This document shows positions 11,030 to 55,234 of a stretch of 64,000 bases of DNA, in pieces. Position numbers and translations under genes: made by a program. The notes beneath the pieces were generated by a model. That model was not told the origin of the DNA. It worked only from the letters and a program-made list of their open reading frames with translations, and searched no databases. This stretch comes from an uncultured Acidobacteriota bacterium (GTDB lineage Bacteria > Acidobacteriota > Terriglobia > Terriglobales > Acidobacteriaceae), in assembly GCA_963801615.1 (NCBI GenBank), contig CAWDFM010000004.1:58167-122166 (forward strand). Direction: 5' to 3'. The stretch's first letter is position 1. Each line of letters begins with the position of its first letter.

Positions 11030-11227
11030 TACGGGATCGCCGGCAGCACGCTCGTGCACCAGGAAAATTATCGCGCGAGTGAACCCATCGACCACGCCCC
11101 ACCGGTAAGTTCACCATGGAATGACAGAGGCACGAGAAATAAAGTAAAGAGGCTTTCTCCGTGCTTCCGTGTCTCTGTGGTGAAATGTTCTCAGCAGCGC
11201 GTTGCTTCCACAAGTCAGGAGCACAGG

Positions 11228-39961: not shown

Positions 39962-41317
39962 ATGAGGAAACTGGGGATATTCCTGCTTACGGTCATTCCG
40001 GTTGTGATTCTGTTGTCGGTGGCGGCTCTGAACCCGCCGAAGGTGGAGGCGGTTCCGAGTTATGCGCGGCAAACCGGATTAGCTTGCAGTGGCTGCCATT
40101 ACACTCCTCCGGAGCTAAATCCGGCGGGACGCAGATTCAAGTTGTTGGGATATGTAGACAAAGCGGATGAGACGAAGGTGGTGAAAGCCGATCCGGGGAA
40201 AAAGCGAGCGCCGCTCGATCTGCTGTCCTCATTACCCCTTTCCGCCTGGCTGGAGACTTCGTTCACTTCCACGAAATCAACCGTGCCCGGAACACAGAAT
40301 GGCAGCATTGAAATTCCCCAAGATGTATCCTTATTCATCTCCGGCGCCTGGACCACTCACGTGGGCAGTTTCATGCAAATGACTTACGACACGCAGGACG
40401 ATCACTTCAGTATGGATAACACAGACGTCCGCTACGCGAATAAGACCACGGTTGGGGGTAAGGAACTCGTATTCGGTCTGAACCTCAACAACAATCCCAC
40501 CATAGAAGATCTTTGGAATAGCACACCGGGATGGGGTTATCCGTTCGTGGCCGATGATTTTGCTCCGACTCCCACGGCTGCGCCCATCGTTGCCAGTTTG
40601 GGCCAGGATGTCGCGGGTTTCGGTGGCTATGCCATGTGGAACAACCACTTGTATGCCGACGCGACGTTCTACCGGTCCGCACACGTCGGAGGAACTCAGC
40701 CGACGGACGGAGTCGATTTTGGCTACAACATCCGCGGCCTGGCTCCGTACTGGCGAGTGGCATGGCAGCAGTTGACGGGAAAGACGCAGTACGAGTTCGG
40801 CACTTACGGCATGCACATGCGTTCCAGCCCGGGGGCCATTACCGGCCTGGAAGATAACTACACCGACTGGGCGATCGACACTCAGATCGATCGGACCTTG
40901 TTCAGAACCGACGTGCTTTCGCTGCGTGGCTCGTACATCCGCGAAAATTCGAATCTCGTCGCCAGCACCGCCTTGGGTGCGGCATCGGCGGGCAGTCATC
41001 ATTTGAATACTCTTTTCGCCAACGCCGAATACCATTTTGGCAATCGCGCGTCGGGCGCTTTGGGTTGGTTCGACACGAGCGGCACGGTTGACCCCCTCCT
41101 CTTTACTCAGGCGGCGGTGAGCGGAAGCGCCAATGGGGATCCGAGGGGCTCGGGTTACATCGCGAACTTCTCGTACTGGCCGTGGCAGAACCTGCAACTC
41201 TCGGCGCAGTACACCGGATACACCCGCTTCAATGGCGGCAGCACGAACTACGATGCCGCCGGCCGCAATGCAAGCGGGAACAACACCGTCTACCTGGTAG
41301 CAAGATTCATTTTCTGA
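39962..41317 (+). CDS. fused monoheme cytochrome c / outer-membrane beta-barrel protein (Cyc2-like architecture)
   Basis: Signal/anchor, then PSYARQTGLACSGCH with a single CxxCH at 40084..40098. This is followed by about 400 aa of an alternating beta-strand-like sequence ending ...VYLVARFIF (C-terminal aromatic residue). Confidence 0.75.
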   Translation: MRKLGIFLLTVIPVVILLSVAALNPPKVEAVPSYARQTGLACSGCHYTPPELNPAGRRFKLLGYVDKADETKVVKADPGKKRAPLDLLSSLPLSAWLETSFTSTKSTVPGTQNGSIEIPQDVSLFISGAWTTHVGSFMQMTYDTQDDHFSMDNTDVRYANKTTVGGKELVFGLNLNNNPTIEDLWNSTPGWGYPFVADDFAPTPTAAPIVASLGQDVAGFGGYAMWNNHLYADATFYRSAHVGGTQPTDGVDFGYNIRGLAPYWRVAWQQLTGKTQYEFGTYGMHMRSSPGAITGLEDNYTDWAIDTQIDRTLFRTDVLSLRGSYIRENSNLVASTALGAASAGSHHLNTLFANAEYHFGNRASGALGWFDTSGTVDPLLFTQAAVSGSANGDPRGSGYIANFSYWPWQNLQLSAQYTGYTRFNGGSTNYDAAGRNASGNNTVYLVARFIF

Positions 41318-41365
41318 TGCAGACACAGATATTCCACTAGGCAAATGCAAAAGGAGAACAAGGCC

Positions 41366-41947
41366 ATGAGATGCAAAGGATTCGTACTGATGCTGGTGGT
41401 GAGTGCGTTGGGCGTGGCAGCTTCGGCGGGCGATATCGAGGGTAAGGTCAGCGGCATGAAAGGGAAGTCGGTAGTTTATGTCGATGCCATTGCAGGCAAG
41501 ACATTTCCCGCTCCCAAGGATCATCCAGTGATGGATCAAAAGGGACTGATGTTTGTCCCGCACATTATGCCGGTTCAGCAGGGGACCACGGTGGAGTTCC
41601 TGAACAGCGACACGGTACAGCATAACGTGTTCTGGACCGCGATCGGCTCAGATAAGAAGGCCGGACACAATCTTGGAACGTGGCCGAAGGGCGAGAAGCG
41701 CCCCTACACGTTCGACAAGCCTGGTGTCGTGCCGGTGCTCTGCAATGTTCATCCGGAGATGGCGGGATACGTCGTTGTCAGCCCTACCCCGTACTTCGCC
41801 GAAACGGATGACAGCGGAAGCTACAAGATCAAAGACGTTCCCGACGGCAGCTACACGGTCACAGTTTTTCATGAAGGTGCGAAGAACCAATCCAAGCCCG
41901 TGACGGTTGCTGGCGGCGGCAAGGCGGATTTCACCCTGACCAAGTAA
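41366..41947 (+). CDS. periplasmic type-1 copper protein (amicyanin-type cupredoxin) with C-terminal CarboxypepD_reg-like domain
   Basis: Signal peptide MRCKGFVLMLVVSALGVAASAG. Ligands are QHNV (His) and C-N-V-H-P-E-M (C-x2-H-x2-M). C-terminal DDSGSYKIKDVPDGSYTVTV. aaggag RBS. Confidence 0.8.
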   Translation: MRCKGFVLMLVVSALGVAASAGDIEGKVSGMKGKSVVYVDAIAGKTFPAPKDHPVMDQKGLMFVPHIMPVQQGTTVEFLNSDTVQHNVFWTAIGSDKKAGHNLGTWPKGEKRPYTFDKPGVVPVLCNVHPEMAGYVVVSPTPYFAETDDSGSYKIKDVPDGSYTVTVFHEGAKNQSKPVTVAGGGKADFTLTK

Positions 41948-41957
41948 GTAGAACAGG

Positions 41958-41996
41958 TGCGGGGAGTGTGACCGCCGCTCCCCGCATTTGGTTTTA
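41958..41996 (+). terminator. intrinsic terminator/attenuator-like hairpin inside the cluster
   Basis: 9-bp stem tgcggggag/ctccccgca, 11-nt loop, followed by tttggtttta. Confidence 0.5.
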
Positions 41997-42043
41997 CGCA
42001 TTTTGGGACGTGTCGACGTGCAGGCAAAGGGACAGAAACCGCG

Positions 42044-43999
42044 ATGCTGAAGCGCTTCAAGAACAAGAAGGTCGACGCCGATTGGCTGCACACGAATTTC
42101 CCCTGCATGATGGCCTGTCCGGCGCACACCAATGCCGGGCGCTATGTAGGCCTGATTGCCGAGGGACGGTTCGAAGAAGCCTACCGGCTGGCGCGTGATC
42201 CGAATCCGCTGGCCAGCATTTGCGGGAGAGTCTGTGCGCATCCTTGCGAAACGGCGTGCAGGCGCGGCGAGATCGACCGGCCAATTTCCATTCGCGCCCT
42301 GAAGAGGTTTCTCACCGAGCAGTACGGGCCCGAATCGAAACGCCCTCTCAACATCAACGAAGGGCGCGCTCAGAAAAAACTTCCTTACAAAGTAGCGGTA
42401 GTCGGCGGCGGGCCAGTAGGGCTCTCCGCAGCCCATGATCTGGCGCTCATGGGATATGCGGTCACTATTTTCGAAGCTGCGCCCGTCGCGGGGGGAATGC
42501 TGTACCTGGGCATTCCGGAATACCGTTTACCCCGCGACGTGGTCGAAGCGCAGGTGCGAGAGATCCTCGAAACTGGAGACATCACCCTCAAGTTGAACCA
42601 GGCGGCCGGACGCGACTTCAAGATTTCTGATCTGCGGCAGCAAGGGTTCGATGCGCTGCTGGTCGCCGTTGGTGCGCACCGCAGCCGGGACTTGAGCATC
42701 CCGGGCGTCGATCTCGATGGCGTTCACAAGGGGATCGATTTTCTTCTGAACGTAAATCTTGGCTACAAGTTCACGATCGGTAAGAAGGTGATTGTGATTG
42801 GCGGCGGCAATGTCGCCATGGATGTGGCTCGTTCGGCAGCGCGCGAAGTTGTGAAACAGCATGCGGGCGGAGTCGAAGACGTCGAGCCCTCGGCCGAGAA
42901 TGTCTCCGCCGTTGCCACAAAGGAAATGGTCGATATCTCTCTGTCCGCATTGCGCATGGGCGCGCAAGAAGTCAACCTCGTCTGCCTGGAGCGGCGCTAT
43001 GAGATGCCGGCGGCTTTGGAAGAGATTGAAGAGGCCGAGGAAGAGGGCATTCGAATTCATCCCGGCTTCGGGCCCAAGCGGGTTGTCGGAAAAGACGGGA
43101 AGGTAGCGGCTCTCGAGGTGCTCAAGACCAAGTGGGTCTTTGATCAGAACGGTCGCTTCAATCCTGCGTTCTACGAGAACAGCGAGAGCCAGATCGAGTG
43201 CGACACCATCATCATGGCGATCGGGCAGGCGCCCCGGCTCGACTTTCTAACTCCGGAAGATAAGGTTGAGATTTCGCCTCGCGGCCTGATTGCGGTGAAC
43301 CCGCAGACGCTGATGACTTCCGCAGCGGGAATTTTTGCCGGAGGCGATTGCGTGTTTGGACCGCGGTTGATTATCGACAGCGTCGGTGACGGGAAGCGCG
43401 CAGCCGTTGGGATTGATGAATTCCTGCGGGGCGGAAAGCACCCTGAGCCGATCATTGAGGTCGAAATTCTCAAGCGGCATGCCATGCCGTTGGGCTATTT
43501 AGATATCGATCGGCAGCCCGTACCCATGCTTCCTCTCGAACGGCGCACGGGCGTGACCGAGGTTGAGATCGGTTACAACGCAACCTCGGCCATGGTCGAG
43601 GCCCAGCGCTGCCTGCACTGCTGGACGAACACAATCTTCGAAGGCACTCCGGAAGACGGAAGCATGTGCATCCTCTGCGGCGGCTGCGTCGATGTTTGTC
43701 CAGAGAATTGCCTGGAACTGGTGTCGCTTGATCGCATCGGCTTCGAACCGGAAGCGGTGCAGCACATTCGTGAGAACCAGGAATGTTTTGGAGTGGAGTT
43801 CGACGAAGTGGCGGCTGATGAACTTGGAGTAGTGATGGGGGCAGCCATGTTGAAGGACGAAACTCGGTGTATCCGTTGTGGCCTATGCGCCATGCGGTGT
43901 CCGGTGGGGACGATCACGATGGAATCGTACAACCTGGTTCCGGCGGAGCCGACGGGATTGATCTCAGTGGCCGCAATTGGGGCCGGATTGCAGAGGTAG
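42044..43999 (+). CDS. GltD-like FAD/NAD(P)-binding oxidoreductase with N-terminal FeS region and C-terminal 2x[4Fe-4S] ferredoxin domain
   Basis: CMMACPAH...CGRVCAHPCETAC, then the dinucleotide motifs VAVVGGGPVGLSAAHDL and VIVIGGGNVAMD. C-terminal CILCGGCVDVCP and CIRCGLCAMRCP. Confidence 0.85.
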   Translation: MLKRFKNKKVDADWLHTNFPCMMACPAHTNAGRYVGLIAEGRFEEAYRLARDPNPLASICGRVCAHPCETACRRGEIDRPISIRALKRFLTEQYGPESKRPLNINEGRAQKKLPYKVAVVGGGPVGLSAAHDLALMGYAVTIFEAAPVAGGMLYLGIPEYRLPRDVVEAQVREILETGDITLKLNQAAGRDFKISDLRQQGFDALLVAVGAHRSRDLSIPGVDLDGVHKGIDFLLNVNLGYKFTIGKKVIVIGGGNVAMDVARSAAREVVKQHAGGVEDVEPSAENVSAVATKEMVDISLSALRMGAQEVNLVCLERRYEMPAALEEIEEAEEEGIRIHPGFGPKRVVGKDGKVAALEVLKTKWVFDQNGRFNPAFYENSESQIECDTIIMAIGQAPRLDFLTPEDKVEISPRGLIAVNPQTLMTSAAGIFAGGDCVFGPRLIIDSVGDGKRAAVGIDEFLRGGKHPEPIIEVEILKRHAMPLGYLDIDRQPVPMLPLERRTGVTEVEIGYNATSAMVEAQRCLHCWTNTIFEGTPEDGSMCILCGGCVDVCPENCLELVSLDRIGFEPEAVQHIRENQECFGVEFDEVAADELGVVMGAAMLKDETRCIRCGLCAMRCPVGTITMESYNLVPAEPTGLISVAAIGAGLQR

Positions 44000-44011: not shown

Positions 44012-44503
44012 ATGGAAGAAGAGAAGAAAGTGGAGTTGGAGAGTGATCTAAATCGGCGGCAGTTTTTCCTGAAGATGGGCCTGGGCTCGCTCACTATTGC
44101 GGCTGCGGGAACCGCAGCATTTGCGTATCAATATTTGGAACCCAACGTGTTATTCGAGCCCTCTCCGGTTGTGAATGCCGGGAAGCCTGATCGATATCCG
44201 CTCGATTCCGTGACCCTGGATGTGAATTCCGGGATTTACATCATTCACACGCAAGAGGGCTATTTCTCTCTCAGCGCGGTGTGCACGCACCTGGGATGTC
44301 TCACGGCATGGAAGCCGGAACTCAACATGATTGCCTGTCCGTGTCATGGCAGCAAGTTCGCGCAGAGCGGGAAGAAGATTGAAGGCCCGGCTCCTAAGCC
44401 GCTTCCGTGGAAGCGGATCTGGCTCAATGACGATGGCGACCTGCTGGTGGATCGTTCGACCGATGTCCCGCCGCTGGCGCGGGATTCCTTTGTGAGGGTC
44501 TGA
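44012..44503 (+). CDS. Rieske [2Fe-2S] subunit, Tat-exported
   Basis: [10 protein letters not shown] Tat motif. Cluster boxes CTHLGC and CPCHGS. Confidence 0.9.
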
Positions 44504-44504
44504 A

Positions 44505-45347
44505 ATGGCGAAAACGGTAGACCAGTATTTTGACGGCTTGCGCGAGACGCGTGTTTGGCGGTCCATTTTCCGCAGCGGGACGGGGTCGAGCACGCTGAAG
44601 CGGGCGCTGGCCATTCAGCAAAACGTGTTCCTGCACCTGTTCTCGACCAAAGTGCGCACGCGCATGTTGAGCTTCAGCGCCACCTGGTATCTAGGGACAC
44701 TGACGCTCGGCACATTTCTGATTCTGGTTGCGACCGGTATTCCCCTGATGCTTTATTACCATCCCTCGGCGCCGCAGGCGTACGCGGACACGAAAGATCT
44801 TCAGTTCGTGGTTTCTTCCGGATTATTTCTGCGCAACCTTCACCGCTGGTCTGCGCACGCGATGGTGTTTCTCGTCTTCGCGCACATGTTCAAAGTGTTT
44901 TATCGCGGCGCCTATCGCCCTCCGAGGGAATTCAACTGGGTGATCGGCATTGTTCTTCTCCTTATCACTCTGCTGCTCAGCTACACCGGATATCTGCTGC
45001 CGTGGGATCAATTAGCGTATTGGGCCATCACGGTGGGATCGAACATCGCATCCGCGGTTCCGGTAATCGGAGACAAGATTCACTTCCTTCTGCTCGGCGG
45101 GAACGCCGTCAATGCAAATGCACTGCTTCGGTTCTACGTGCTGCACTGCATGATTCTGCCGCTGGTAGCGATGTTCTTTGTCGCGATTCATTTCTGGCGC
45201 ATTCGCAAAGATGGCGGACTTTACGCTCATTCCAGTGAGCCTGCGGTTCTGCGAGGAAAGGCCAACAACACTGGGAGCGAGATTCCCACTTCTCGCAAAG
45301 GCAGCGAGAAGTGGGGCACCCAGGCGGAAGCCACGGAGGCGAAATAG
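44505..45347 (+). CDS. cytochrome b, N-terminal four-helix part (b6-like)
   Basis: Helix B has [18 protein letters not shown] (His pair 14 positions apart). Helix D has [18 protein letters not shown] (His pair 15 positions apart). [10 protein letters not shown] motif present. Confidence 0.9.
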
Positions 45348-45349
45348 CT

Positions 45350-46057
45350 ATGGCCGAAAGCAAAGACTTCATCGCCGGCGTGGATTCGAATGCCAAGAAG
45401 TCTCCGCGCCGCATTGTGTTCATCACACGGCGTACTTCTGCGCAGGTGAAGGTAGAGACGGAAGATCAGGTGCAAACCTTCCCAGAGGTCTTGTTTCGCG
45501 CGGCCGTTGCGATTCAGTTGCTGGCTATCGTCCTGGTGTGGACCGCGCTGCTGTTCAATGCGCCTCTGGAAGGACTGGCCGATCCCTCGCACACTCCGAA
45601 TCCCGCGAAGGCACCGTGGTACTTTCTGGGGCTGCAGGAGATGCTGCATTATTTCCCGCCAGTGGTCGCGGGGGTCCTGGTCCCCGGCTTAGTCGTGATG
45701 GCGCTGATCGTCATTCCATATTTCAAGGTCAACATCGAGGCTGACGGATTCTTTCTGAGGGACCGGCAGAAGCGGCTGATGATCTTCTACGCGGTGACTG
45801 CGTTACTCGTCATTTTCCTCGGGTTGTTCCACGTGCTCGTGGGATTGATACCGACGCTGATCATGGCCGGGTTGATGCTACTGGCTGCGCAGAGTTCTCC
45901 CCAGTCTCCATCCGCGTTCCGGCGGTATCTAGCAGAACGGCCGCTTTCCTATTGGGTGATGACCTGGTTCTTATTCGAACTGGTGGTGCTTACGGCCATC
46001 GGTACGTTCTTCCGCGGTCCAGGGTGGTCGTTTATCTGGCCGTGGCAAGGTTCATAA
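45350..46057 (+). CDS. cytochrome b C-terminal part (subunit IV-like)
   Basis: NPAKAPWYFLGLQEMLHYFPP (PEWY-equivalent region) plus additional TM helices. Confidence 0.8.
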   Translation: MAESKDFIAGVDSNAKKSPRRIVFITRRTSAQVKVETEDQVQTFPEVLFRAAVAIQLLAIVLVWTALLFNAPLEGLADPSHTPNPAKAPWYFLGLQEMLHYFPPVVAGVLVPGLVVMALIVIPYFKVNIEADGFFLRDRQKRLMIFYAVTALLVIFLGLFHVLVGLIPTLIMAGLMLLAAQSSPQSPSAFRRYLAERPLSYWVMTWFLFELVVLTAIGTFFRGPGWSFIWPWQGS

Positions 46058-46070: not shown

Positions 46071-48155
46071 ATGAAACGAAAAATTACGTCGCTGTGGCAG
46101 AAGTTGTTTGGAGACAGCGTGCGGGCGTTTGGCGTCGTCAGCCTGATTTTCCTGGCGTCCATGGCGGTGGCCCCCTCCAAGAATTTCTTCAGCGAGTGGA
46201 GACATTATCAGCGGGGTTATCTGAGGATGATTCGCAATCGCAGCGAAGCCAACACGCTGCGGCGGCATTTCCAGGGTGGGATCCAGCAGATCTGGCTGCC
46301 CGAGTTGGGCGAGGTGGATCGTTGCACGAGCTGCCACGTGGGATTGAAAGAAGGCGCGCTGGCCGATGTCGCCACTCAGCCCTACCGCCCACATCCTGCC
46401 ATTCCACACAAAGGGGAGCAGTTCGGATGCACCGTCTGTCATCGGGGACAAGGCGCGGCCACCACGGTGGAAGAGGCACACAACAGCACGCTGGCCTGGG
46501 AGCAGCCAATTCTGCCCGCGAAATACATCGAGTCTTCCTGCGGTGAGTGCCATCGCGGCCCATTGCCGGGCACCCCTCAACTAAATCAGGGCCGAAATCT
46601 GCTGTCTCGGGAAGGATGCGTACACTGCCACACCGTCAAGCTGCCCGACGGCAGCACGATGAAAGCCACGGATAATCCCCCGTCGCTCTCGCATGTTGCC
46701 GATAAGACTACGCGCGAATGGATTTTTGCCTGGCTGAAGGATCCGCAGTCTTATGCCTCGACAGCCACGATGCCGAACTTCAAGCTAAAGGACGAGGACG
46801 CGCGAGATATCTCTGCATTCCTCATCGCGAACAGCACCCCAGTGCAGGGGGACGCCCTTACGCTCGGGGCGAAAGCGTCGTCTGACCCGAGCGCTGGAGC
46901 AAGTCTCTATGGAGAATCTTTCTGCGCAACCTGTCATGCGGTGCAGAATGCCGCCGGCAACATGGTGGGTGGAGACGTTGGACCAGAGTTGACGCGCGTG
47001 GGCAGCAAAGTGAAGGCCGAGTGGGTGCAGGGCTGGCTGAAGAATCCGCGCGTCTACAATCCGGCCACCGCGATGTCGCATTACCGCTTCACGGATGCGC
47101 AGATTGCGACGCTATCTGGATTCCTGCTGGGCAAAGCGGATTCCGATCTCCTGGCAAATGTGCACCTCGAAGCGGCAACACCCGAGCAGATCACGCACGG
47201 CAAACGGCTGGTATCAGATTACGGCTGCGACGCATGCCATGAAATCGCGGGCATCAAGAAGCCGGAGAACTTTGCGCCGGAACTCAGCCGGATTGGCGGC
47301 AAGCCCGTTACGCAACTGATCTTCTTGCCCGGCATGCCGCACACGCTCCCAGATTACATCGCGGGCAAGATTAAACAGCCACGGGCGTTTGCTCCCGGGC
47401 TGAAGATGCCGCAATACACGTTCACTGCGGCACAGATTGACTCGCTTACAACCGCTCTGCTGTCGTTGAATGAACGCTCGTATACGCTGCCGCCGTCACT
47501 CGCGGTGGCGGCCAAGCCGGAATCCGATTACCAGCCGGCGGGCAAGCCCGGAAAGCTGATGACTGATCTGGCCTGTTTCAGCTGCCACCGCATCAACGGT
47601 CACGGGTCCGAGATGGCTCCCGACCTGACTTGGGAAGGCAGCTCGGTACAGCGGGAGTGGCTGGTGCAGTTCCTGAAAAATCCTGGGACGCTGCGTCCGG
47701 CGTTGATTCGCCGCATGCCGCGCTTCAACTTTACGGATGCCGAAATCAATGAGCTCACTGACTACATCATGACCGTGTATCAGAGTCCGGCCGTGGATCG
47801 CGATTCCATGCCTCTGAGCGGATATCCGCAGGGGCAAATCGAACTCGGCAAGCAACTGTTTTACGGCAAGTATGCGTGCCAGGGATGCCACATTGTCGAT
47901 AGCAAAACCGACAAGGGCTACATCGGACCCACGCTGTCGCATGTTGGGTCGCGGCTTACTGCGGCTTGGATCTATCAATGGCTGAAGAATCCGCAAGCCC
48001 TCCGGCCGGGAACGCTGGAGCCGAATCGCGCCATGAGCGACGAGGATGCGCGGGCGCTGACCGCGTTCTTGATTTCGCAAAAAGGGGAGAAGTTGCCCGG
48101 TGCCGCAAAGGCCGCGAGAAGCGGGGCCGCCAAGCCGGAGGTCGCAAAGAGATGA
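46071..48155 (+). CDS. membrane-anchored octaheme cytochrome c
   Basis: N-terminal TM helix. Eight CxxCH motifs counted by hand: CTSCH, CTVCH, CGECH, CVHCH, CATCH, CDACH, CFSCH, CQGCH. The last four sit in class-I-like repeats (W..WLKNP). Confidence 0.85.
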   Translation: MKRKITSLWQKLFGDSVRAFGVVSLIFLASMAVAPSKNFFSEWRHYQRGYLRMIRNRSEANTLRRHFQGGIQQIWLPELGEVDRCTSCHVGLKEGALADVATQPYRPHPAIPHKGEQFGCTVCHRGQGAATTVEEAHNSTLAWEQPILPAKYIESSCGECHRGPLPGTPQLNQGRNLLSREGCVHCHTVKLPDGSTMKATDNPPSLSHVADKTTREWIFAWLKDPQSYASTATMPNFKLKDEDARDISAFLIANSTPVQGDALTLGAKASSDPSAGASLYGESFCATCHAVQNAAGNMVGGDVGPELTRVGSKVKAEWVQGWLKNPRVYNPATAMSHYRFTDAQIATLSGFLLGKADSDLLANVHLEAATPEQITHGKRLVSDYGCDACHEIAGIKKPENFAPELSRIGGKPVTQLIFLPGMPHTLPDYIAGKIKQPRAFAPGLKMPQYTFTAAQIDSLTTALLSLNERSYTLPPSLAVAAKPESDYQPAGKPGKLMTDLACFSCHRINGHGSEMAPDLTWEGSSVQREWLVQFLKNPGTLRPALIRRMPRFNFTDAEINELTDYIMTVYQSPAVDRDSMPLSGYPQGQIELGKQLFYGKYACQGCHIVDSKTDKGYIGPTLSHVGSRLTAAWIYQWLKNPQALRPGTLEPNRAMSDEDARALTAFLISQKGEKLPGAAKAARSGAAKPEVAKR

Positions 48156-48886
48156 AGCACTTTGCTTCGGAAGTAACAATTCTGAGTATGGCTTTGCTGG
48201 CTACTTCCTGTTCGCACAAATCCGTGTCGACGCCGGTTATTAAGCCTACAGCGTTCGGCGCCGCGATCGTTGAGTCCAGCGGAGGCAAGCAGCTGGCACA
48301 GACGGGTGCGTTGTTGGCGCAACCCGTGGTCGTGCTGGTCAACGACGCGCAGGGAACGGGCGTTTCTGGCGCGCTCGTCGATTTCGAGGCCGCGCCTGGA
48401 GTGACATTTGATCCTGCCAGCGCGCTGACCGATTCCAGTGGCCAAGTCACCACCAACGTATCCCTTGGCGGGATGGCTGGCCGCTACCAGATCACGGCTT
48501 CTACCTTCGACAAGTCGCACAGAAAAGTGGAATTGAAAATCGAAGAGATCGCGCTTGGTTATCAGCAGGCGCTGGGCAGGCATCTCAACGATCAGTACTG
48601 CGATCGCTGCCACAACGCCGAATCCACTGTCGAACGCGTTTCCAATTACGACAACCTGGAGGTCAAGCCGCATCCGTTCACCGAAGGGTCTACGCTGAAC
48701 AAGATGAGCGACGCAGATCTCACAGCTATCATCATTTATGGAGGACCAGCCCTTAGCAAGTCAGCGCTGATGCCGGGCTGGGGGAACACGCTCAGCAGCG
48801 CCGATGTGCAGGCGCTCATTTCCTATATCCGGGCGATTTCCGATCCTCCATCCCGAAGCGCTGGCCCGGTTTACGCGAAGAATTAG
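48152..48886 (+). CDS. lipoprotein with Ig-like (Big_1-type) domain and C-terminal monoheme cytochrome c
   Basis: Lipobox LLATSC, VVVLVNDAQGTGVSGALVDF...SSGQVTTNV, then CDRCH ... MPGWG. ATGA overlap with the octaheme gene. Confidence 0.8.
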   Translation: MKHFASEVTILSMALLATSCSHKSVSTPVIKPTAFGAAIVESSGGKQLAQTGALLAQPVVVLVNDAQGTGVSGALVDFEAAPGVTFDPASALTDSSGQVTTNVSLGGMAGRYQITASTFDKSHRKVELKIEEIALGYQQALGRHLNDQYCDRCHNAESTVERVSNYDNLEVKPHPFTEGSTLNKMSDADLTAIIIYGGPALSKSALMPGWGNTLSSADVQALISYIRAISDPPSRSAGPVYAKN

Positions 48887-48993: not shown

Positions 48994-51900
48994 TTATGCT
49001 GCGGGTGCAGATTCCTGTCGCGACAGATCTCTTTCTCGCAGCCAAGTGAAGATCACCGGAGTCACAATCAGAACATGCAGTAGGGAGCTGACCATGCCTC
49101 CGAGCACAGGGGTTGCGAGTGGCTTCATCACTTCAGCGCCGGTGCGGGTAGACCACATAATCGGTAAGAGCCCTGCTACAACCGTGGATACGGTCATGAT
49201 CTTGGGACGTAAACGCAACAAGGCGCCTTCCATAACCGCTTCACGCAATCCCTGTACCGTCAGTCCGCCCATCGCGGCTCGCTTTCGCTCCACCGCCTCT
49301 TCCAAATAGATAACCATCACTACACCGGTCTGCACCGCGGTGCCGAACAGGGCGATGAAGCCGACCCAAACGGCAACGGAGAAGTTGTACCCAAGCAGCT
49401 TCAGGAGAAACACTCCGCCGCTCAATGCAAAAGGTACGGCGAGGATCACGTGCGAGGCCTCTTTGAACGAGTTGTAGGTTTTGTAGAGCAGAAGAAAGAT
49501 GATCAGGAATACGACTGGAATGACGAGTTCAAGCCTTTTTTTGGCACTAATCTGGTTCTCGTACTGGCCACTCCACTCGATGTAGTAGCCTGGCGGCATT
49601 TTCACTTCGCGGGCGACAGCATGCTGCGCCTCGTCCACGAACCGGCCAACGTCGCGGCCGCGCACGTTCATCAGCACACTTCCTCGCAGCAAACCGTTTT
49701 CGCTGCTGATCATGGATGGCCCCATCACCACGCCAAGGTCTGCTACTTCTCCAAGAGGAATCTGAGCGCCGTTGCTGGCCGTGACCAGTACGTTGTTTCG
49801 CAACTGTTCGGGATTTTCGCGGAAATCAGGGGAGTAACGAACTCTGACGGGTAGACGTTGGCGACCGTCAATTGCGGTGGTAAGGTTCTTGCCGCCAATC
49901 GCGGTCTCGATCACGTCCTGCACGTCGCCGACGTTTATACCGTAGCGCGCGGCGGCTTCGCGATTCACCTTGATTTCCAGGTACGGAGCGCCGGTGATGC
50001 GCTCGGCATAGAGGTCAGCGACACCAGGAACCGGCCGCAGAGCCCGTTCGATTTCAGTCTCCTTCTGTTCGATGGTCGCGAGGTCGTTGCCAAAGACCTT
50101 TACTCCGACCTGCGTGCGAATGCCGGTCGAGAGCATGTCGATGCGGTTGCGGATGGGCTGGGTCCAGATGTTGGTCACACCCGGCAGACGGAGCTTCTCG
50201 TCCAGCCTTTGCAGGATCGTTTCTTTGGTGGCGCCAGCGGGCCATTTGTCCTTAGGCTTGAAGTTGATGACGGTTTCAGTCATGTTCACTGGCGCGGGAT
50301 CGATGGCGCTTTCTGCGCGACCGATTTTGCCAACGACGCTATCGACCAGCGGATCTTGCGCAATGATTTTGTCCTGCCACCGAAGAATCTCGGTTGCCTT
50401 GGTGAGCGAAATGCTCGGGTCGGTAATCGGCATGAACAGCGCAGTCTCTTCGTCGAGTGGCGGCATGAACTCCGAGCCGATCGTGGTGGCCAGCCAGAGC
50501 GCCGAGGCAAAGATTGCAACTGCCGCACTCAAAGTCACAATCCTGTGCTTTAAAGCCCAGCGCAGTACGGGTTTGTAGATCATTCCCAAGGCGTGCATCA
50601 CGGGATTCGCGTCCTCGCGGTGCAGCTTTCCACGGATCAGGAAGGTGCAAAGCACCGGGACCAAGGTGACCGCGATGAACGTAGAGCACACCATGGCGAA
50701 AGTTTTGGTAAAGGCCAGAGGGTGAAACATCTTGCCTTCCATCCCAGTCAGTGCAAACACGGGTACGAATGCCAAAATGATGATGGTCATGGCGAAGAAA
50801 ATCGGTCGACCGACTAATTTGGCTGCTTCGAGCGTGATCTGGCTAATCGCTGACTTGTATTCGCCATGTTCTTCGTAATAACGCTCTGCGTGCCGCAGCA
50901 CGTTTTCAGTCATCACGATGCCAGCATCGACCAACACTCCAATCGCAATGGCGATCCCTCCGAGTGACATGATGTTGGAAGAGATGTCCGCGTAGTGCAT
51001 GAAAAGAAATGATCCAAGTACCGCAAGCGGCAATGGCAGAGTCACAATGAGGATGCTGCGGAAGTGCCACAGGAAGATCACGTGCGCGAGCGTGACCAGA
51101 GCGATCTCTTCGAACAGCGCCGACTTTAGCGTGTTCACAGCATGAACGATCAAAGTACTGCGGTCGTAAAAAGGAACGATGTGGACACCTTTAGGTAGCC
51201 CTGGCTCGAGCGCTGCAAGTTTCGTTTTGATCCCGCTAATAACCTCCTGCGCGTTCGCCCCGTTGCGGATGACGACCACTCCGCCCACAACATCCTTGCC
51301 GTCCTTGTCGAGAACGCCGCGGCGGAATTCCGGTCCCAAATGGACGTTGGCAACGTTGCGGATGTAGACCGGTGTGCCACCCGTGGCGGTGAGGACGATA
51401 TTCTCAAGGTCGGCCGGCGAGCCAATCAAGCCAATCCCGCGGACTGCCATCTCCTGGTCGCTTGCTTCAATCACTTTTGCGCCAACATTGGTGTTACTGC
51501 GCTGGACGCCGTCGATTATGGTGCGCAAAGGAATGTTGTAGGCGCGCAGTTTGATAGGATCAACGTCGATCTGATATTGGCGTACCCAACCGCCAATGCT
51601 GGCCACTTCTGCCACGCCGGAAACAGAATTCAGCTGGTACTTGATGAACCAGTCCTGAAGGGAGTGCAGGGTTCCGCCGTCGTAGGGGCCCTCGACCGTG
51701 TACCAGAAAACTTGGCCCACGCCGGTTGCATCCGGACCTAGAACAGGTACGACTCCTTCCGGCAGGAAAGCCGATGCCAGGTTCAGCCGCTCCAAGACCC
51801 GTGTGCGCGCAAAATAGGGGTCAATCTTGTCCTGGAAAATGATGTTGATCATTGAGAAACCCAAGGCCGAGGAGGAGCGCACGTCTCTCACTCCCGCCAG

Positions 51901-52125
51901 ACCTTGCAAGTTCACAGTCAACGGATACGTGATCTGGTCTTCCACTTCCTGAGGACTGCGGCCTGCCCAGTCGGTGTAGACAATCACTTGGTTCTCGCTG
52001 AGATCAGGAATGGCGTCGATTGGCGTCCTTAGGAGTGCCCAGTAACCCCAAACAGCCAGCAGCGCGTAAGCCAGCAAAATGAGGCCGCGGTTCTTGAGCG
52101 AAAATTCAATGAGCCGATTGATCAT
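48994..52125 (-). CDS. CusA/CzcA-family heavy-metal efflux RND transporter
   Basis: 1043 aa. [24 protein letters not shown]-terminus and 12-TM HME-RND organisation. Confidence 0.95.
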
Positions 52126-52137
52126 AATTTCTCCTCA

Positions 52138-53727
52138 TCACTGCGCATTCAGCCGGGCGCGGTAGCTGCCTAGAAGTTGCCCGTTGCGGCTGGCATTAAC
52201 TTCGACATTCCAAGAGCCTGCCGACGGGACCTTGATGGTGCCCACGTACTCTGAGCCCTTCCATGTGAGGGCGGTCGAAGCACGCATCTCGGCCATTCCC
52301 ATTGCTGGCATCGCCGGCATAATCAGCGTGACCTTTATTTCCGCATCACTCACGGGCCTTCCGGAAGCCTCGAGCGCGGTCACGTGCAACGTGGCGTCGG
52401 AATTGCCACGTGGTGTTTGCGGATCGCAACGGAAGGTCAGCTTCATCTGAGATACAACCGGGGCTTGCGCCTGACCTTGGTCCGCCTGACCATGATCGAA
52501 TTCTTTCGATCCACCATAGAGTCCAGTCATGCCGCCGCTGATCCTGGTTTGTGAATCGATCAGGAAATTACCCTGACTGACAATGCGTTCGCCTTCTTTG
52601 ACTCCAGAGAGCACTGGGTAGTAGTCGTTGCCAGGCATTCCGAGTTGCACCTCTCGGCCTTCGAATTCCCCATTGCCTTTAGCTACGTAAACGATCTTGC
52701 GCATACCCGTATCGAGAACAGCCGAGCGGGGTATGGCCAGGACGTCGCGTGCTGCCGGTGCAGCAAACTTGACTTGCACGAACATGCCGGGACGCAATCG
52801 CATGTTGGGATTCGGAACCTGGATTCGAGCCGAGGCAGTGCGGGTCTGAGGGTTGATGGAAGTATCGAGAAATCCCACTCGCCCATGCAGGGTAGCGCCG
52901 GGTAGTGAGTCCGAAGTGATCTCAACGTTCTGGCCGGTATGCACAGCGGGCAAATCGGGCTGGTACACGTCGGCCTTTACCCAAATCGTGCTCAAGTCGA
53001 CCACGGTAAAAAGGACTTCGCCTGCGTTTACGTATTGCCCTTGGGTAACCTTGCGTTCGCTCACGATGCCGCTCACGGAGGCATAAATGGGGAGTTCGAT
53101 CTGCGGTTTCTCCGACGATGCGATCTCATCAAGCTGCGGTGGAGTGAGTCCCCAAAGTTCGAGCCGGCGGCGGCTGGCGGTTACGAGATCTTCGGCCCCT
53201 GCGACTGCAAGGGGCTCGGCGCTTTTGGCCAGACGCCTTTGGTTCTCGATCGCGAGCCTGTACTCTTCAGCGGCGGAAAACACTTCCGGACTGTAAAGCG
53301 ATGCGATGATCTGACCACGACGCACTTGCTGGCCCGTGAAATCCAGGTTGAGTTTGTCGATGCGGCCACCGATGCGGGCACTGATCGAAGCCAGTTGGGT
53401 TTCCGGTTCGTCTACTTTGGCGACAGTCATCAGAGCGCGTTGAAGGTTACGTCGCCTGACTTCGACCGTTTCGACACCAATGTCCTTCTGTTCTTTCTGG
53501 TCGAGTTGAATACTGGAAACCGAGGAGTCAGCCTGGGCTTGCTCATGTTCTGCTCTTCGAGACGTGGTTTGGTCTAACGGTGTCTCGTACTCGGGAATCT
53601 GGCCTTCTTGAGTCTGGGCAGCGCTACGCTCGGGTTGCCAAAGGCGAGTCGCGCCGTACACGACGAAGGCCAGCACCAGCCCGAGAGCGAGTCCTGTGCC
53701 AAGAAGTTTCTTTTCATGATGTGTCAT
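52138..53727 (-). CDS. efflux RND periplasmic adaptor (CusB-like) with extra C-terminal Met-rich YtkA/FixH-like domain
   Basis: The adaptor core (barrel-sandwich/lipoyl motifs) is followed by ...LTFRCDPQTPRG...IMPAMPAMGMAEMRAS...GSWNVEVNA. Confidence 0.9.
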   Translation of the reverse strand: MTHHEKKLLGTGLALGLVLAFVVYGATRLWQPERSAAQTQEGQIPEYETPLDQTTSRRAEHEQAQADSSVSSIQLDQKEQKDIGVETVEVRRRNLQRALMTVAKVDEPETQLASISARIGGRIDKLNLDFTGQQVRRGQIIASLYSPEVFSAAEEYRLAIENQRRLAKSAEPLAVAGAEDLVTASRRRLELWGLTPPQLDEIASSEKPQIELPIYASVSGIVSERKVTQGQYVNAGEVLFTVVDLSTIWVKADVYQPDLPAVHTGQNVEITSDSLPGATLHGRVGFLDTSINPQTRTASARIQVPNPNMRLRPGMFVQVKFAAPAARDVLAIPRSAVLDTGMRKIVYVAKGNGEFEGREVQLGMPGNDYYPVLSGVKEGERIVSQGNFLIDSQTRISGGMTGLYGGSKEFDHGQADQGQAQAPVVSQMKLTFRCDPQTPRGNSDATLHVTALEASGRPVSDAEIKVTLIMPAMPAMGMAEMRASTALTWKGSEYVGTIKVPSAGSWNVEVNASRNGQLLGSYRARLNAQ

Positions 53728-55124
53728 CAGCGCACCTCCGGAGTGATCTGAGGAAGAGAAGCTTGAGGGCCGGTTGTGTTCGATTCGTGTCCGTCCCGTG
53801 GCAGGGAAGTTCCCACCGCACGTTCGAGATCGGCGATTCGCGATTCCAGTTCGGATGCGGAGCGGTAGTAATCGAGTTCAACTTCGAGGGCCGTGTTCTG
53901 GCTGTCGAGCAAGTTGAGGAAGTCGGTGCGGTCGACCTGATAAGCAGCAACCGTTGACTTTAATGTTGCCTGTGCCTGGGGACGAAGCGTCTGGTTGTAA
54001 AGATCAACGAGGCGCTTCGCAGACTGCGCGCGAATCAGAGCATCCTGGATTTCCTGGAAGACGATCGCCCGTTGGTTTTCGTACTCTGCTCTTTCAGCCG
54101 AGACCTCCGCTTGGGCTTCGGCGATCTCCGCGTCGTGGCGCCCTCGATTCAGCCAGGGCAACGTGACAGCGACCTCCGCCATATAGGTGTTGCGATAACG
54201 GGCGCCGTCCGGCATGAGCATATAGCCAGCGCTCAGGTTGTAGTCAGGCGTGTAGGATTTCTCGGCCAGTTTGGTGCGGGCCTCACCTTGCCGCACGCCT
54301 GAAGATGCCATCGCCAACTCGGGCCGATTCTCCAAAGCGGTCTTTTCCAGGTCTAAGAGTGCGGGGAGCTTTTGCGGCGGCGAATAATCGCCCTGAAGTT
54401 CCAGTGGAGATGCGGGGTCTCGTCCCAGGAGTGTATTCAGTCGGGCGCGCGCGAGACCGCCGTCCTGTTCGAGCATCACCAGGTGCTCGACAAGTTTAGT
54501 AAGTGCAATCTGCGCTTTCAGCACGTCCTGCTGCGGAACGCGACCGACAACATACTTGATCCGCGCCGACTCGGAGGACTCGCGAGCCAGCGCCGCCTGC
54601 TCGTCATGCAGCAGGAGTTCGTCTTGATTGCGGAGGAGGTCATAGAATGTCTTCCGAACTTCAGCCGTGACATCGCGCTTTTTGGCGTCCAGTTCCGCTT
54701 TGACCTGCTCCACTCCCTCCGAGGCGAGTTGAGTGCGCAGGGCCCGCTTACCCGGACCGGGCAGTGACTGATTGAACATGAACATGTGCTGCGTCTGGTT
54801 CAGATCCCATGGCCTGGCGAGTGGTGTGCCCCAACCGCGATACATGAATTCGGGGTCGCTCAACGACCCAGCGCTGCGCACCCGTGTCTCGGCGATTGCG
54901 ACGCGACGCATAGCTACCCGGATTTCGAAATTGTTTGCCAACGCAGCTGCTTCGAGTTCGTTAAGACTCATGGGCGGCGTGGACGACCGAGGGTGCTGAT
55001 GCTCCTGCGCCAGAAGGCCAGTCACACCAGACAGGGGATCGACATTGGCGGGGGGCTCATTGGCAAAGCCCACGGCACCGCTGAAGGCAATCAGCAGGCA
55101 AATACTTACACGTAGAACTTTCAT
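53727..55124 (-). CDS. TolC/CusC-family outer-membrane efflux protein
   Basis: Start taken at MKVLRVSICLLIAFSGAVGFA, with ggagg RBS. Two OEP repeats. Confidence 0.85.
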   Translation of the reverse strand: MKVLRVSICLLIAFSGAVGFANEPPANVDPLSGVTGLLAQEHQHPRSSTPPMSLNELEAAALANNFEIRVAMRRVAIAETRVRSAGSLSDPEFMYRGWGTPLARPWDLNQTQHMFMFNQSLPGPGKRALRTQLASEGVEQVKAELDAKKRDVTAEVRKTFYDLLRNQDELLLHDEQAALARESSESARIKYVVGRVPQQDVLKAQIALTKLVEHLVMLEQDGGLARARLNTLLGRDPASPLELQGDYSPPQKLPALLDLEKTALENRPELAMASSGVRQGEARTKLAEKSYTPDYNLSAGYMLMPDGARYRNTYMAEVAVTLPWLNRGRHDAEIAEAQAEVSAERAEYENQRAIVFQEIQDALIRAQSAKRLVDLYNQTLRPQAQATLKSTVAAYQVDRTDFLNLLDSQNTALEVELDYYRSASELESRIADLERAVGTSLPRDGHESNTTGPQASLPQITPEVR

Positions 55125-55234
55125 TGCTCCTCCGTAAACAGTTAACGAGTCGAGGGATAGGAGGCATGTTGCTGCCAGCCGCACCAAAGGCGCAGCAAGG
55201 CAGGGCACGACTTCATCCGGGCAATGAAAGTTGT

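Follow-up and report, generated by a model that had tools for sequence, protein, structure and literature searches.

Organization of the gene cluster

The window (the whole stretch of acidobacterial DNA that was analysed, 64,000 nucleotides in length) contains a tightly packed run of forward-strand genes in which an iron–sulfur flavoprotein, P0001, precedes a Rieske protein, a cytochrome b, a subunit IV-like membrane protein and two c-type cytochromes. The features of this run and of the region directly upstream, including the motifs within P0001, are as follows.

39962-41317, + strand: protein with a signal peptide and one CxxCH motif, no Pfam match; present upstream in 16 of 24 close loci
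41345-41947, + strand: secreted cupredoxin with a CarboxypepD_reg-like C-terminal domain; kept directly upstream in 24 of 24 close loci
41948-41997, + strand: strong hairpin and, after it, a U-rich stretch, in the interval between the cupredoxin and flavoprotein genes (-32.4 kcal/mol, z -6.75)
42044-43999, + strand: P0001, a predicted GltD/NfnB-like FeS-FAD-NAD(H) flavoprotein ('GltDFd') of 651 aa (open ORF, Pfam)
42104-42259, + strand: N-terminal cluster region of P0001, C21-x3-C25-P and C64/C68/C72
42404-42421, + strand: FAD Rossmann motif GGGPVG, P0001 residues 121-126
42800-42817, + strand: dinucleotide Rossmann motif GGGNVA, P0001 residues 253-258
43607-43621, + strand: R-C-L-H-C, P0001 residues 522-526, the displaced first half of the canonical GltD first-cluster motif
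43667-43903, + strand: ferredoxin domain of P0001, CILCGGCVDVCP (residues 542-553) and CIRCGLCAMRCP (609-620), from Pfam and Cys motifs
44012-44503, + strand: Rieske [2Fe-2S] protein, 163 aa, with the twin-arginine leader NRRQFF and the boxes CTHLGC and CPCHGSKF
44505-45347, + strand: four-helix b6-type cytochrome b, 280 aa, with the four canonical haem His and an N-terminal His44
45350-46057, + strand: subunit IV-like membrane protein of 235 aa, counted from the ATG at 45350; four or more hydrophobic segments
46071-48155, + strand: membrane-anchored octahaem cytochrome c, 694 aa, eight CxxCH motifs (Pfam, motif count)
48152-48886, + strand: lipoprotein combining an Ig-like (Big_1) domain with a single class-I cytochrome c domain

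From the P0001 gene through the lipoprotein cytochrome c gene, the intergenic gaps are 12, 1, 2, 13 and -4 nt, the last being an overlap of the lipoprotein ATG with the stop of the octahaem gene (ATGA). The original prediction, which set the flavoprotein gene immediately upstream of the Rieske gene at a distance of 12 nt, agrees with the positions of the P0001 stop (TAG, 43997-43999) and the Rieske start (ATG, 44012). A promoter scan ahead of the P0001 gene returned nothing useful. The hairpin at 41948-41997 is a possible attenuator or terminator, and because it lies between the cupredoxin and flavoprotein genes, the upstream genes may form a separate unit. Among these, the 39962-41317 product may be a Cyc2-like cytochrome-porin. 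In the subunit IV-like protein, four segments pass the hydropathy threshold, and a long one among them (approximately residues 149-190) could be two helices.

The host genome encodes two NuoD-type genes and three haem-copper oxidases, lacks RuBisCO and looks like that of an aerobic heterotroph; with this combination, there is no obvious need for an additional NADH-making route. It also encodes two separate canonical GltD-like paralogues, in both of which the N-terminal motif is intact.

Anatomy of the flavoprotein and its membrane partners

Pfam domains in P0001 comprise Fer4_20 (residues 19-93), Pyr_redox_2 (115-449) and Fer4/Fer4_7 (542-625), and the motifs they contain indicate four FeS cluster sites, FAD and a dinucleotide fold. 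By sequence and by fold, P0001 is most similar to the NADPH-binding, GltD-like module of the electron-bifurcating Bfu-type enzymes NfnABC/StnABC and to NfnB, with sequence E values from 2e-91 to 4e-70 and Foldseek E values down to 2e-48 against NfnABC/StnABC and NfnB-type structures (query-normalised TM 0.57-0.66). Most of the architecture in the original prediction was recovered, namely the two Rossmann motifs for FAD and NAD(P)H (GGGPVG at 121 and GGGNVA at 253), the C-terminal domain with two C-x2-C-x2-C-x3-C-P motifs (at 542 and 609) and a placement on the cytoplasmic side. The Kyte-Doolittle value stays at or below 1.6 in every 19-residue window, and the N-terminal sequence, MLKRFKNKKVDADW, does not resemble a signal; P0001 thus has neither a transmembrane segment nor a signal peptide, and is predicted to be a soluble, cytoplasmic protein.

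The N-terminal Cys clusters described as typical of GltD were found in part. C21-x3-C25-P, the second half of the first GltD-type cluster motif, is in place, as are C64, C68 and C72, the three invariant Cys of the FAD-adjacent cluster, but the leading R-C-x-x-C has moved to residues 522-526, after the flavin domains, where R-C-L-H-C is invariant throughout the family. The first-cluster motif of GltD is permuted in P0001, being split between residues 522-526 and 21-26. Family-wide invariant residues are C21, C25, C64, C68, C72, K87, C523 and C526 together with the eight ferredoxin Cys; C60 is not among them. Furthermore, residues 314-316 of P0001 are C-L-E where NADPH-binding relatives have Y-R-R, a position tallied on an alignment. 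Because C-L-E replaces Y-R-R after the dinucleotide fold, a preference for NADH over NADPH is suggested, and the site probably takes NAD(H) rather than NADPH.

Cytoplasmic-side features in cytochrome b, which had been suggested as a check, were also found in part. His44 (nt 44634-44636) is invariant in 41 of 41 linked proteins, on par with the four haem ligands, whereas the Cys of the 'LHC' motif was rejected as an extra ligand, since the residue that follows His214, a Cys here, is replaced by Val in many of the linked proteins. We likewise rejected His44 as a specific docking marker for the flavoprotein: the motif is also present in a paralogous, flavoprotein-less Rieske/cytochrome b cluster of the same genome (C7), and it is therefore a trait of the subfamily. 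The C-terminal extension of cytochrome b, a candidate docking site, was discarded as not conserved. At the position where a haem c_n Cys would be, cytochrome b has Tyr62.

A PDB sequence search with the window's Rieske protein returned Kuste4569 of Kuenenia as the best match (9rk4; E 4e-23, 39% over 102 aa) and Kustd1480 as the second (9rk3; E 2e-18, 44% over 77 aa), both outranking all b6f Rieske proteins; these entries are assigned to Kuenenia Rieske proteins (PMC12954380). Box II reads CPCHGSxF in 37 of 43 linked Rieske proteins, with the same Ser/Phe pair as Kustd1480, for which a potential of +335 mV was measured (PMC12954380). Since its Rieske protein is closest to the 9rk4 and 9rk3 proteins, the P0001 cluster represents, in an acidobacterium (Ca. 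Sulfotelmatobacter-like), a kind of complex that has already been described (Kartal 2013; de Almeida 2016; Dibrova 2013, 2017; Hauser 2025).

Conserved linkage and proposed routes of electron transfer

The synteny of the flavoprotein gene with the Rieske/cytochrome b genes is kept in all 24 close loci and extends well beyond them. Homologue searches, cluster look-ups and a contig scan placed the family in Acidobacteriota, Nitrospinota, Nitrospirota, Myxococcota, Desulfomonilaceae, Bacteroidota/Ignavibacteriae and Thermodesulfobacteriota, the last as one further branch, while full-length relatives at 40-58% identity come from Nitrospinota, Nitrospirota, Myxococcota, Desulfomonilaceae, Bacteroidota, Ignavibacteriae and Pyrinomonadaceae. 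In a tree built from a diverse metagenome sample, the proteins of approximately 600-650 aa with two ferredoxin motifs form one clade (SH-aLRT 99), and Rieske/cytochrome b genes lie beside or close to the flavoprotein gene in 47 of its 50 scorable members, which span several phyla. Two of the others adjoin CcoG and one stands alone; four more members, on truncated contigs, could not be scored. None of the long fusion proteins of the sister clade in the same sample has this linkage. Gene orders vary (flavoprotein–Rieske–cytochrome b, or flavoprotein–cytochrome b–subunit IV–Rieske) and the adjacency persists. Approximately 17% of the sampled acidobacterial species genomes carry the flavoprotein-bearing Rieske/cytochrome b design.

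We consider it very probable that P0001 is a subunit of the Rieske/cytochrome b complex. The explanation we favour overall, with moderate confidence, is that it transfers electrons on the cytoplasmic side, as a subunit of a membrane complex of the Rieske/cytochrome b6 type whose most likely reaction is a bifurcating one. The membrane core of such a complex would be a dimer of the Rieske protein, the four-helix cytochrome b and subunit IV, with the octahaem and lipoprotein cytochromes c on the periplasmic side and the ferredoxin domain of the flavoprotein docked on the cytoplasmic face of cytochrome b. Judging from the motifs, the wire within P0001 would start at two ferredoxin-type [4Fe-4S] clusters (Cys 542/545/548/552 and 609/612/615/619), pass through a [4Fe-4S] cluster to which C523/C526 and C21/C25 would contribute and a three-Cys cluster held by C64/C68/C72 with the invariant K87, and end at FAD and then the dinucleotide site, probably for NAD(H) by its C-L-E.

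Quinol would be oxidised at the Qo site, as Kartal et al. 2013 and Hauser et al. 2025 hypothesised. The first electron would travel downhill through the Rieske protein and the c haems to a high-potential acceptor (the cupredoxin, then an oxidase or an extracellular acceptor), while the second would pass through the b haems, perhaps with an extra haem on His44, into the FeS wire and on to NAD+; the passage of b-haem electrons to NAD(P)+ is itself a published hypothesis (Kartal 2013; Hauser 2025, PMC12954380). The sum would be a Rieske-type electron bifurcation that makes NADH. For the forward, NAD+-reducing direction taken as a separate claim, our estimate falls slightly short of an even chance. 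Several points weigh against the favoured explanation, among them the hairpin, the three clade members whose gene does not directly adjoin cytochrome b (L093, L094 and L142), the occurrence of the His44 motif in the C7 cluster, the missing haem c_n Cys and the lack of a visible demand for another source of NADH.

Electrons could instead enter through the flavoprotein, which would oxidise NAD(P)H and feed the FeS wire, the b haems and finally an n-side quinone or the c haems, making the complex a built-in, non-pumping NAD(P)H:quinone or NAD(P)H:cytochrome c reductase. We regard this as unlikely, but it draws on several observations. The wire is reversible in principle, pyridine nucleotide is the usual electron source of the GltD, NfnB and DPD relatives, and the aerobic heterotrophic appearance of the host is compatible with such a role. 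In addition, the flavoprotein gene of Bacteroidota and Pyrinomonadaceae lies within cbb3 oxidase gene clusters, as would suit a donor-to-oxidase chain. The option is discussed by Hauser et al., who regard it as energetically wasteful (PMC12954380). The two complex-I-type NuoD genes already in the genome also speak against it, as does the Ser/Phe Rieske type, which matches the +335 mV protein and so fits bifurcation, although neither point is decisive.

In a confurcating arrangement, Fe(II) electrons arriving via the Cyc2-like protein, the cupredoxin and the c haems would join NADH electrons at Qo and reduce quinone. The frequency of the Cyc2-like gene and the constancy of the cupredoxin gene upstream (16 and 24 of 24 close loci, respectively) are consistent with this idea, as are the weaker Cyc2-like matches that adjoin more distant family members and the reversal of the bc1 complex by Acidithiobacillus during iron oxidation (pet operon, PMC10654088). 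However, many family members have no Cyc2 neighbour and the hairpin may uncouple the upstream genes. NADH would moreover be spent on lifting Fe(II) electrons into the quinone pool with no evident gain, because the three haem-copper oxidases could take these electrons directly. We judge this arrangement improbable.

The idea that P0001 is a soluble enzyme with a different partner, merely co-regulated with the respiratory genes, likewise has a poor chance of being correct; it might donate electrons to the cupric reductase CcoG in cbb3 maturation or act on a ferredoxin. It would account for one subclade (L092, L094 and L142) in which the gene sits between ccoNO and DsbD-like/ccoG/ccoI genes, with L094 and L142 directly adjoining the latter, and for L093, where the flavoprotein gene stands alone. 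Yet the array of L092 also includes Rieske/cytochrome b genes, the window's clade and most others abut such genes, nearly all of their sampled flanks are free of CcoG, and the distant locus L144 shows only a weak CcoG-like match. The linkage also outlasts changes in gene order. Furthermore, according to the accounts of de Almeida 2016 given in PMC5600118 and PMC12954380, cytochrome b and the oxidoreductase of Kuenenia, a subunit of homologous kind, belong to one membrane complex in which all subunits co-migrate.

It is extremely improbable that P0001 is an ordinary GltD or NfnB-type transhydrogenase subunit, despite the common fold (Fer4_20 and Pyr_redox_2) and the database names 'glutamate synthase beta subunit-like' and 'formate dehydrogenase beta subunit', as no GltB, NfnA, NfnB or NfnC partner gene is adjacent, canonical GltD-like paralogues exist elsewhere in the genome, and the extra ferredoxin domain, permuted motif and Rieske/cytochrome b linkage mark a separate clade. 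All GltD and Nfn equivalog models remain far under cut-off (TIGR01317, 200 bits versus 448, and TIGR01318, 241 versus 483, for GltD; TIGR01316, 301 versus 472, for NfnB), and the highest-scoring NCBIfam model, the generic PRK12771, reaches 454 bits where 516 are required. The scores against the GltD models, the split motif and the lack of GltB rule out a glutamate synthase subunit in particular.

Relation to known complexes

To our knowledge, anammox bacteria are nearly the only setting in which Rieske/cytochrome b complexes bearing an NAD(P) reductase have been considered, and the reaction of these complexes has yet to be measured. Anammox bacteria are hard to handle, and a distinct, widespread clade offers more organisms in which the disputed bifurcation can be tested, the design being spread over Acidobacteria, Nitrospirota, Nitrospinota, Bacteroidota, Ignavibacteriae, Myxococcota and Desulfobacterota/Thermodesulfobacteriota. 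The analysis also supplies sequence markers, namely the permutation of the first-cluster motif, an invariant His in cytochrome b and CLE in place of YRR, and it sets right two misleading database names, 'glutamate synthase beta' and 'formate dehydrogenase beta'. Literature searches found no acidobacterial description of a flavoprotein-bearing Rieske/cytochrome b complex and no experimental structure of a whole one.

A broader proposal, which we put forward tentatively and with more doubt than conviction, is that soil Acidobacteria and many non-anammox phyla run a Rieske-type, quinol-driven bifurcation that reduces NAD+ directly, and so represent a widespread, uncharacterised class of 'quinol:NAD+/cytochrome c oxidoreductase'. 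If this were true, the enzyme would take the place of reverse complex I, the high-potential electron would leave through a cupredoxin/Cyc2-type outer-membrane route or an oxidase, and in most lineages it would have switched to NADH and would work without haem c_n.

The closest described counterparts are the R/b-3 (Kuste4569-4574) and R/b-2 (Kustd1480-1485) clusters of Kuenenia stuttgartiensis (PMC12954380), which share with the window a Rieske protein, a b6-type cytochrome b, an enlarged separate subunit IV, a GltD/NfnB-like flavoprotein and a multihaem cytochrome c replacing cytochrome f/c1, although the gene order differs. By its description, the Kuenenia flavoprotein likewise has four cluster sites, the FAD-adjacent one with three Cys and a conserved Lys (PMC12954380), and NfnABC is the best structural relative of both proteins (9bov_A for P0001; 9bp5 for Kuenenia, PMC12954380). 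AlphaFold3 models place the Kuenenia oxidoreductase under the b haems (PMC12954380). In residue number, His44 is close to His43 of Kuste4571, a proposed inter-monomer ligand of an extra haem b (PMC12954380). Subunit IV of the Kuenenia type has five rather than three transmembrane helices, compared with the four segments in the scan of the window's protein. Unlike Kuenenia, the host is an aerobic-type soil acidobacterium and not an anammox planctomycete, and its cytochrome b has Tyr62 whereas the Kuenenia models use a haem c_n Cys. The periplasmic partners differ as well; those of the window are a cupredoxin, a Cyc2-like protein and a lipoprotein cytochrome c with an Ig domain, and an HAO-like octahaem enzyme is absent.

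The linkage quantified here is the one that Dibrova and colleagues noted between short subfamily G cytochromes b and large, NAD(P)-binding, Cys-rich proteins (Dibrova 2013; 2017, PMC5600118), the likeness to subfamily G being by description. They reported such proximity in planctomycetes and 'in many other cases' (PMC5600118); the main text of the 2017 paper mentions neither Acidobacteria nor a Cyc2/cupredoxin context.

Among soluble enzymes, NfnABC/StnABC (9bov, 9n5u, 8oh5) and NfnB/NfnI-L (4ylf_B, 5jca_L) have the same FeS–FAD–dinucleotide core as P0001. In NfnABC/StnABC/NfnB, the ferredoxin-like domains and R-C-x-x-C precede this core, whereas in P0001 they follow it; NfnB/Bfu-type proteins have Y-R-R, in contrast to the C-L-E of P0001, whose partners would be those of a membrane Rieske/cytochrome b complex.

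Similarly, residues 61-237 of the window's cytochrome b align to residues 34-210 of b6 from cytochrome b6f (1vf5, 4ogq) with an E value of 5e-46, and the split b6/subunit IV arrangement is common to both. Unlike b6f, the window has no haem c_n Cys and no cytochrome f; its subunit IV is larger, a flavoprotein gene is present, and the N-terminus of its cytochrome b is 27 residues longer than that of b6 and bears the invariant His.

Architecture of the flavoprotein and its gene cluster

The flavoprotein under study, P0001, combines a GltD/NfnB-like core with a C-terminal ferredoxin domain and lies in a compact run of redox genes.

Genes and elements of the cluster and its surroundings (window coordinates)
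39962-41317, +: gene for a putative Cyc2-like, porin-like protein; signal peptide, single CxxCH
41345-41947, +: secreted cupredoxin, upstream of the P0001 gene
41948-41997: hairpin with U-rich tail between the cupredoxin and P0001 genes; -32.4 kcal/mol, z = -6.75
42044-43999, +: P0001; open reading frame, 651 aa
44012-44503, +: Rieske protein with twin-arginine leader
44505-45347, +: four-helix b6-type cytochrome b
45350-46057, +: subunit IV-like protein; start at ATG 45350 probable
46071-48155, +: octahaem cytochrome c, membrane-anchored
ATG 48152, +: lipoprotein with an Ig-like domain and one cytochrome c domain, overlapping the octahaem gene stop
48994-55208, -: RND-type efflux operon of the CusCBA kind; convergent, downstream

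The reading frame, Cys clusters, two Rossmann motifs and extra C-terminal ferredoxin domain described in the original prediction are all found in P0001. Pfam places Fer4_20 at residues 19-93, Pyr_redox_2 at 115-449 and 4Fe-4S ferredoxin families at 542-625; the Rossmann glycine motifs are GGGPVG at 121 and GGGNVA at 253, and C-x2-C-x2-C-x3-C-P occurs twice, at 542 and 609. The proposed absence of a signal peptide or transmembrane segment agrees with a polar N-terminus and with a whole-protein hydropathy scan in which no 19-residue window reached a Kyte-Doolittle mean of at least 1.6. The predicted 12-nt gap to the Rieske gene is likewise present, between the P0001 stop ending at 43999 and the Rieske ATG at 44012.

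The description of the N-terminal Cys clusters as GltD-type stood only in part. Both GltD-like paralogs of the window's genome open with the canonical R-C-x-x-C-x4-C-x3-C-P, whereas the P0001 N-terminus holds the second half only (C21-x3-C25-P), the R-C-L-H-C half being displaced to 522-526, directly ahead of the ferredoxin domain. Across 22-24 divergent family members, C21, C25, C64, C68, C72 and K87 are invariant, as are R522-C523-L524-x-C526 and all eight ferredoxin Cys. We infer that the first FeS cluster would be built from both ends of the core, which would align the ferredoxin domain with the electron wire. This is a permutation of Bfu-type enzymes, in which R-C-x-x-C and the ferredoxin elements precede the core rather than follow it. 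The FAD-adjacent cluster has just three invariant Cys and an invariant Lys, matching the description of the Kuenenia proteins by Hauser et al. (PMC12954380). An AlphaFold2 model of P0001 is confident overall (pLDDT 83, pTM 0.83), with low confidence at both ends (seven N-terminal and 16 C-terminal residues), in a variable insertion at 270-305 and at 591-596; cluster geometry is read here from the motifs and not from model coordinates. The closest relatives in both sequence and fold are NfnABC (9bov), StnABC (8oh5) and NfnI-L (5jca).

Given the strong hairpin at 41948-41997, the cupredoxin and Cyc2-like genes may be partly uncoupled transcriptionally from the P0001 cluster; the hairpin may act as an attenuator that sets different levels of the outer and periplasmic carriers and of the membrane complex. 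The Cyc2-like protein has no Pfam match. The longest subunit IV reading frame begins at a GTG overlapping the end of cytochrome b (45311-45350 region), but translation more likely begins at the ATG at 45350, 3 nt past the stop of cytochrome b. The efflux operon encodes a pump of the AcrB family, an adaptor that resembles HlyD/CusB and has a YtkA/FixH-like domain at its C-terminus, and an outer-membrane factor, and probably exports Cu/Ag beside this copper- and haem-rich redox cluster.

Linkage to Rieske/cytochrome b genes across lineages

A genome scan found a close relative of P0001 encoded in 446 stretches, and the close relatives (89-96% identity) belong to Ca. Sulfotelmatobacter, Acidobacteriaceae and Terriglobales MAGs. 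The order cupredoxin, flavoprotein, Rieske, cytochrome b, subunit IV, octahaem cytochrome c, lipoprotein cytochrome c is kept in all 24 of 24 close loci, and the Cyc2-like gene is present in 16 of these. Matches to the Cyc2-like protein, weak to strong, also lie beside distant family members (L097, L099, L103, L109, L113 and L149), in one distant locus downstream rather than upstream. The window's genome encodes one P0001-type flavoprotein, two ordinary GltD-like paralogs and three cytochrome b genes. Across Acidobacteriota, the family occurs in 52 of 301 species genomes and 38 of 186 genera, patchily even inside the window's own family. An exhaustive search of 50%-identity representatives recovered many full-length relatives (~600-650 aa, 40-58% identity), those named being from Nitrospinota, Nitrospirota, Myxococcota, Desulfomonilaceae, Bacteroidota, Ignavibacteriae, Pyrinomonadaceae and Blastocatellia; one further branch was traced from a metagenome locus to Thermodesulfobacteriota.

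Linkage was assessed in 80 metagenome loci chosen for diversity, not at random: the stop-to-stop ORFs of their flanks were scored by phmmer with queries taken from the window's proteins and from cbb3-related proteins. The short proteins that carry two ferredoxin motifs group as a single clade in a maximum-likelihood tree (54 rows, SH-aLRT 99). Rieske and/or cytochrome b genes share the locus in 47 of these rows, mostly directly adjacent. Two of the remainder lie beside DsbD-like/CcoG/CcoI genes, one is alone and four are on contigs too short to judge. The sister clade (31 rows, mostly fusion proteins of > 900 aa) has no Rieske/cytochrome b neighbours, and the linkage label requires 4 changes on the tree, where shuffled labels require 18.6 on average. 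Gene order varies by lineage (flavoprotein-Rieske-cytochrome b, or flavoprotein-cytochrome b-subunit IV-Rieske) while adjacency is maintained, which speaks for a functional connection, not coincidence. The cluster runs on into cbb3 oxidase genes in Bacteroidota, and the Pyrinomonadaceae flavoprotein gene is flanked by ccoNO and ccoG/ccoI within an array that also includes Rieske/cytochrome b. Database names within the family ('glutamate synthase beta subunit-like', 'formate dehydrogenase (NADP+) beta subunit', 'formate dehydrogenase major subunit', 'FAD-dependent oxidoreductase') in no case reflect this linkage.

Cytochrome b and dinucleotide signatures

Residues 61-237 of the window's cytochrome b align with b6 residues 34-210, placing Tyr62 at the position of b6 Cys35, the covalent haem c_n ligand. 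This Cys is kept in just 3 of 41 linked cytochromes b, those encoded in the same loci as P0001-family flavoproteins, so that the flavoprotein linkage does not depend on haem c_n; the Kuenenia models, by contrast, use this haem. The N-terminus is 27 residues longer than that of b6 and carries an [F/L]-L-H motif. An 'LHC' ligand had been suggested in cytochrome b, and its Cys is not conserved among linked cytochromes b; the search for an extra cytoplasmic-side feature did reveal an N-terminal His44, invariant (41/41) on a par with the four canonical haem ligands and compatible with the extra haem proposed for Kuenenia. The C-terminal extension is not conserved among the linked proteins.

The same N-terminal motif (FLHLHP) is found in a paralogous cluster on contig 7 of the window's genome (166000-184000; locus L175, about 6445-13427), ordered ferrochelatase, Rieske, b6-type cytochrome b, large subunit IV and a 1095-aa multihaem cytochrome c, with a CarboxypepD_reg-domain protein gene also downstream. 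No flavoprotein gene is found in this cluster, making the His motif a subfamily trait; both complexes might share the genome's one flavoprotein, or the motif may play a different part.

As a general rule for Rossmann folds, NAD is preferred where strand 2 ends in an acidic residue and NADP where basic residues stand there. The NADPH-binding relatives NfnA, NfnI-L (NADP(H) bound) and Xfn carry Y-R-R after the second Rossmann strand, where P0001 has C-L-E, which under this rule suggests NADH rather than NADPH. When all sampled proteins are aligned, 49 of the 54 members of the Rieske-linked clade show [C/S/A]-L-E and 27 of the 31 sister-clade proteins show Y-R-R. Within the Rieske-linked clade, Y-R-R is confined to three rows: L095 (assigned to Thermodesulfobacteriota), L096 and L098. 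These form the most basal branch of the family, retaining NADPH-type Y-R-R; L095 and L098, the two with a readable cytochrome b, also retain the CxGG haem c_n motif. Nearly all other branches lack both, L127 retaining CxGG alone, and the two losses may be linked.

Proposed function and comparison with anammox complexes

P0001 is probably the cytoplasmic subunit of a Rieske/cytochrome b complex. As to its reaction, we rank first, tentatively, the published bifurcation scheme, on the basis of the Rieske type and the Kuenenia parallel. The complex would oxidise quinol and split the electron pair: the c haems and cupredoxin would receive one electron, and the second would travel via the b haems and the FeS wire to NAD+. 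Ranked below bifurcation are P0001 as an NAD(P)H input module, and the complex as an entry point where electrons from Fe(II) are confurcated. The window's genome has three haem-copper oxidase subunit I genes, two NuoD-type genes and no RuBisCO large-subunit homolog, and its gene content suggests a heterotroph that has complex I and lives aerobically or microaerobically. Nothing in this genome points to a pressing need for reverse electron flow, which weakens any simple physiological story and leaves the reaction direction a proposal. Also below bifurcation stands a soluble enzyme for another partner, such as CcoG. In a subclade of Pyrinomonadaceae type (L092, L094 and L142), ccoNO and DsbD-like/ccoG/ccoI genes flank the flavoprotein gene on either side, and there the protein could possibly donate electrons to the cupric reductase CcoG in cbb3 oxidase maturation. 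A glutamate synthase or Nfn subunit fails on family scores, on the intact N-terminal motif and on Y-R-R (C-L-E instead).

The proposed complex has its closest known counterpart in the Kuenenia stuttgartiensis complexes Kuste4569-4574 and Kustd1480-1485, which comprise a Rieske protein, b6-like cytochrome b, enlarged subunit IV, multihaem cytochromes c and a putative cytoplasmic NAD(P) oxidoreductase, and for which Qo-site bifurcation to reduce NAD(P)+ was proposed (PMC12954380). De Almeida 2016, as cited there, found complexes containing both cytochrome b and the oxidoreductase subunit to be highly expressed, with all subunits co-migrating (PMC12954380). In AlphaFold3 models of the Kuenenia complexes, the space between the b haems and FAD is occupied by four FeS clusters and by a new haem b with cytochrome b His43/His62 as ligands (PMC12954380). 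NfnABC is the top structural relative of P0001 (as 9bov) and, according to Hauser et al., of Kuste4570 (as 9bp5; PMC12954380), a likeness through a common relative.

The window's Rieske protein matches 9rk4 (Kuste4569; E = 4e-23, 39% identity over 102 residues) and 9rk3 (Kustd1480; E = 2e-18, 44% over 77 residues), the crystallised Rieske proteins of the two Kuenenia complexes (PDB codes from PMC12954380), as its top two sequence matches among all solved structures, above every b6f Rieske. Its Rieske box carries the Ser/Phe pair of Kustd1480, whose measured potential is +335 mV (PMC12954380); the pair occurs in 37 of 43 linked Rieske proteins.

In the literature we found no description of the acidobacterial complex and no experimental structure of a whole flavoprotein-bearing Rieske/cytochrome b complex. 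Nor have we seen described that the GltD motif is permuted, that His44 is invariant and also present in a paralog lacking the flavoprotein, that haem c_n is generally lost or that YRR has changed to CLE. The complex type itself is already described, from anammox bacteria and from the comparative genomics of Dibrova et al., in which short cytochromes b of one subfamily adjoin such oxidoreductase genes 'in many other cases' (PMC5600118), and the cluster studied here is a new member of it in Acidobacteria.
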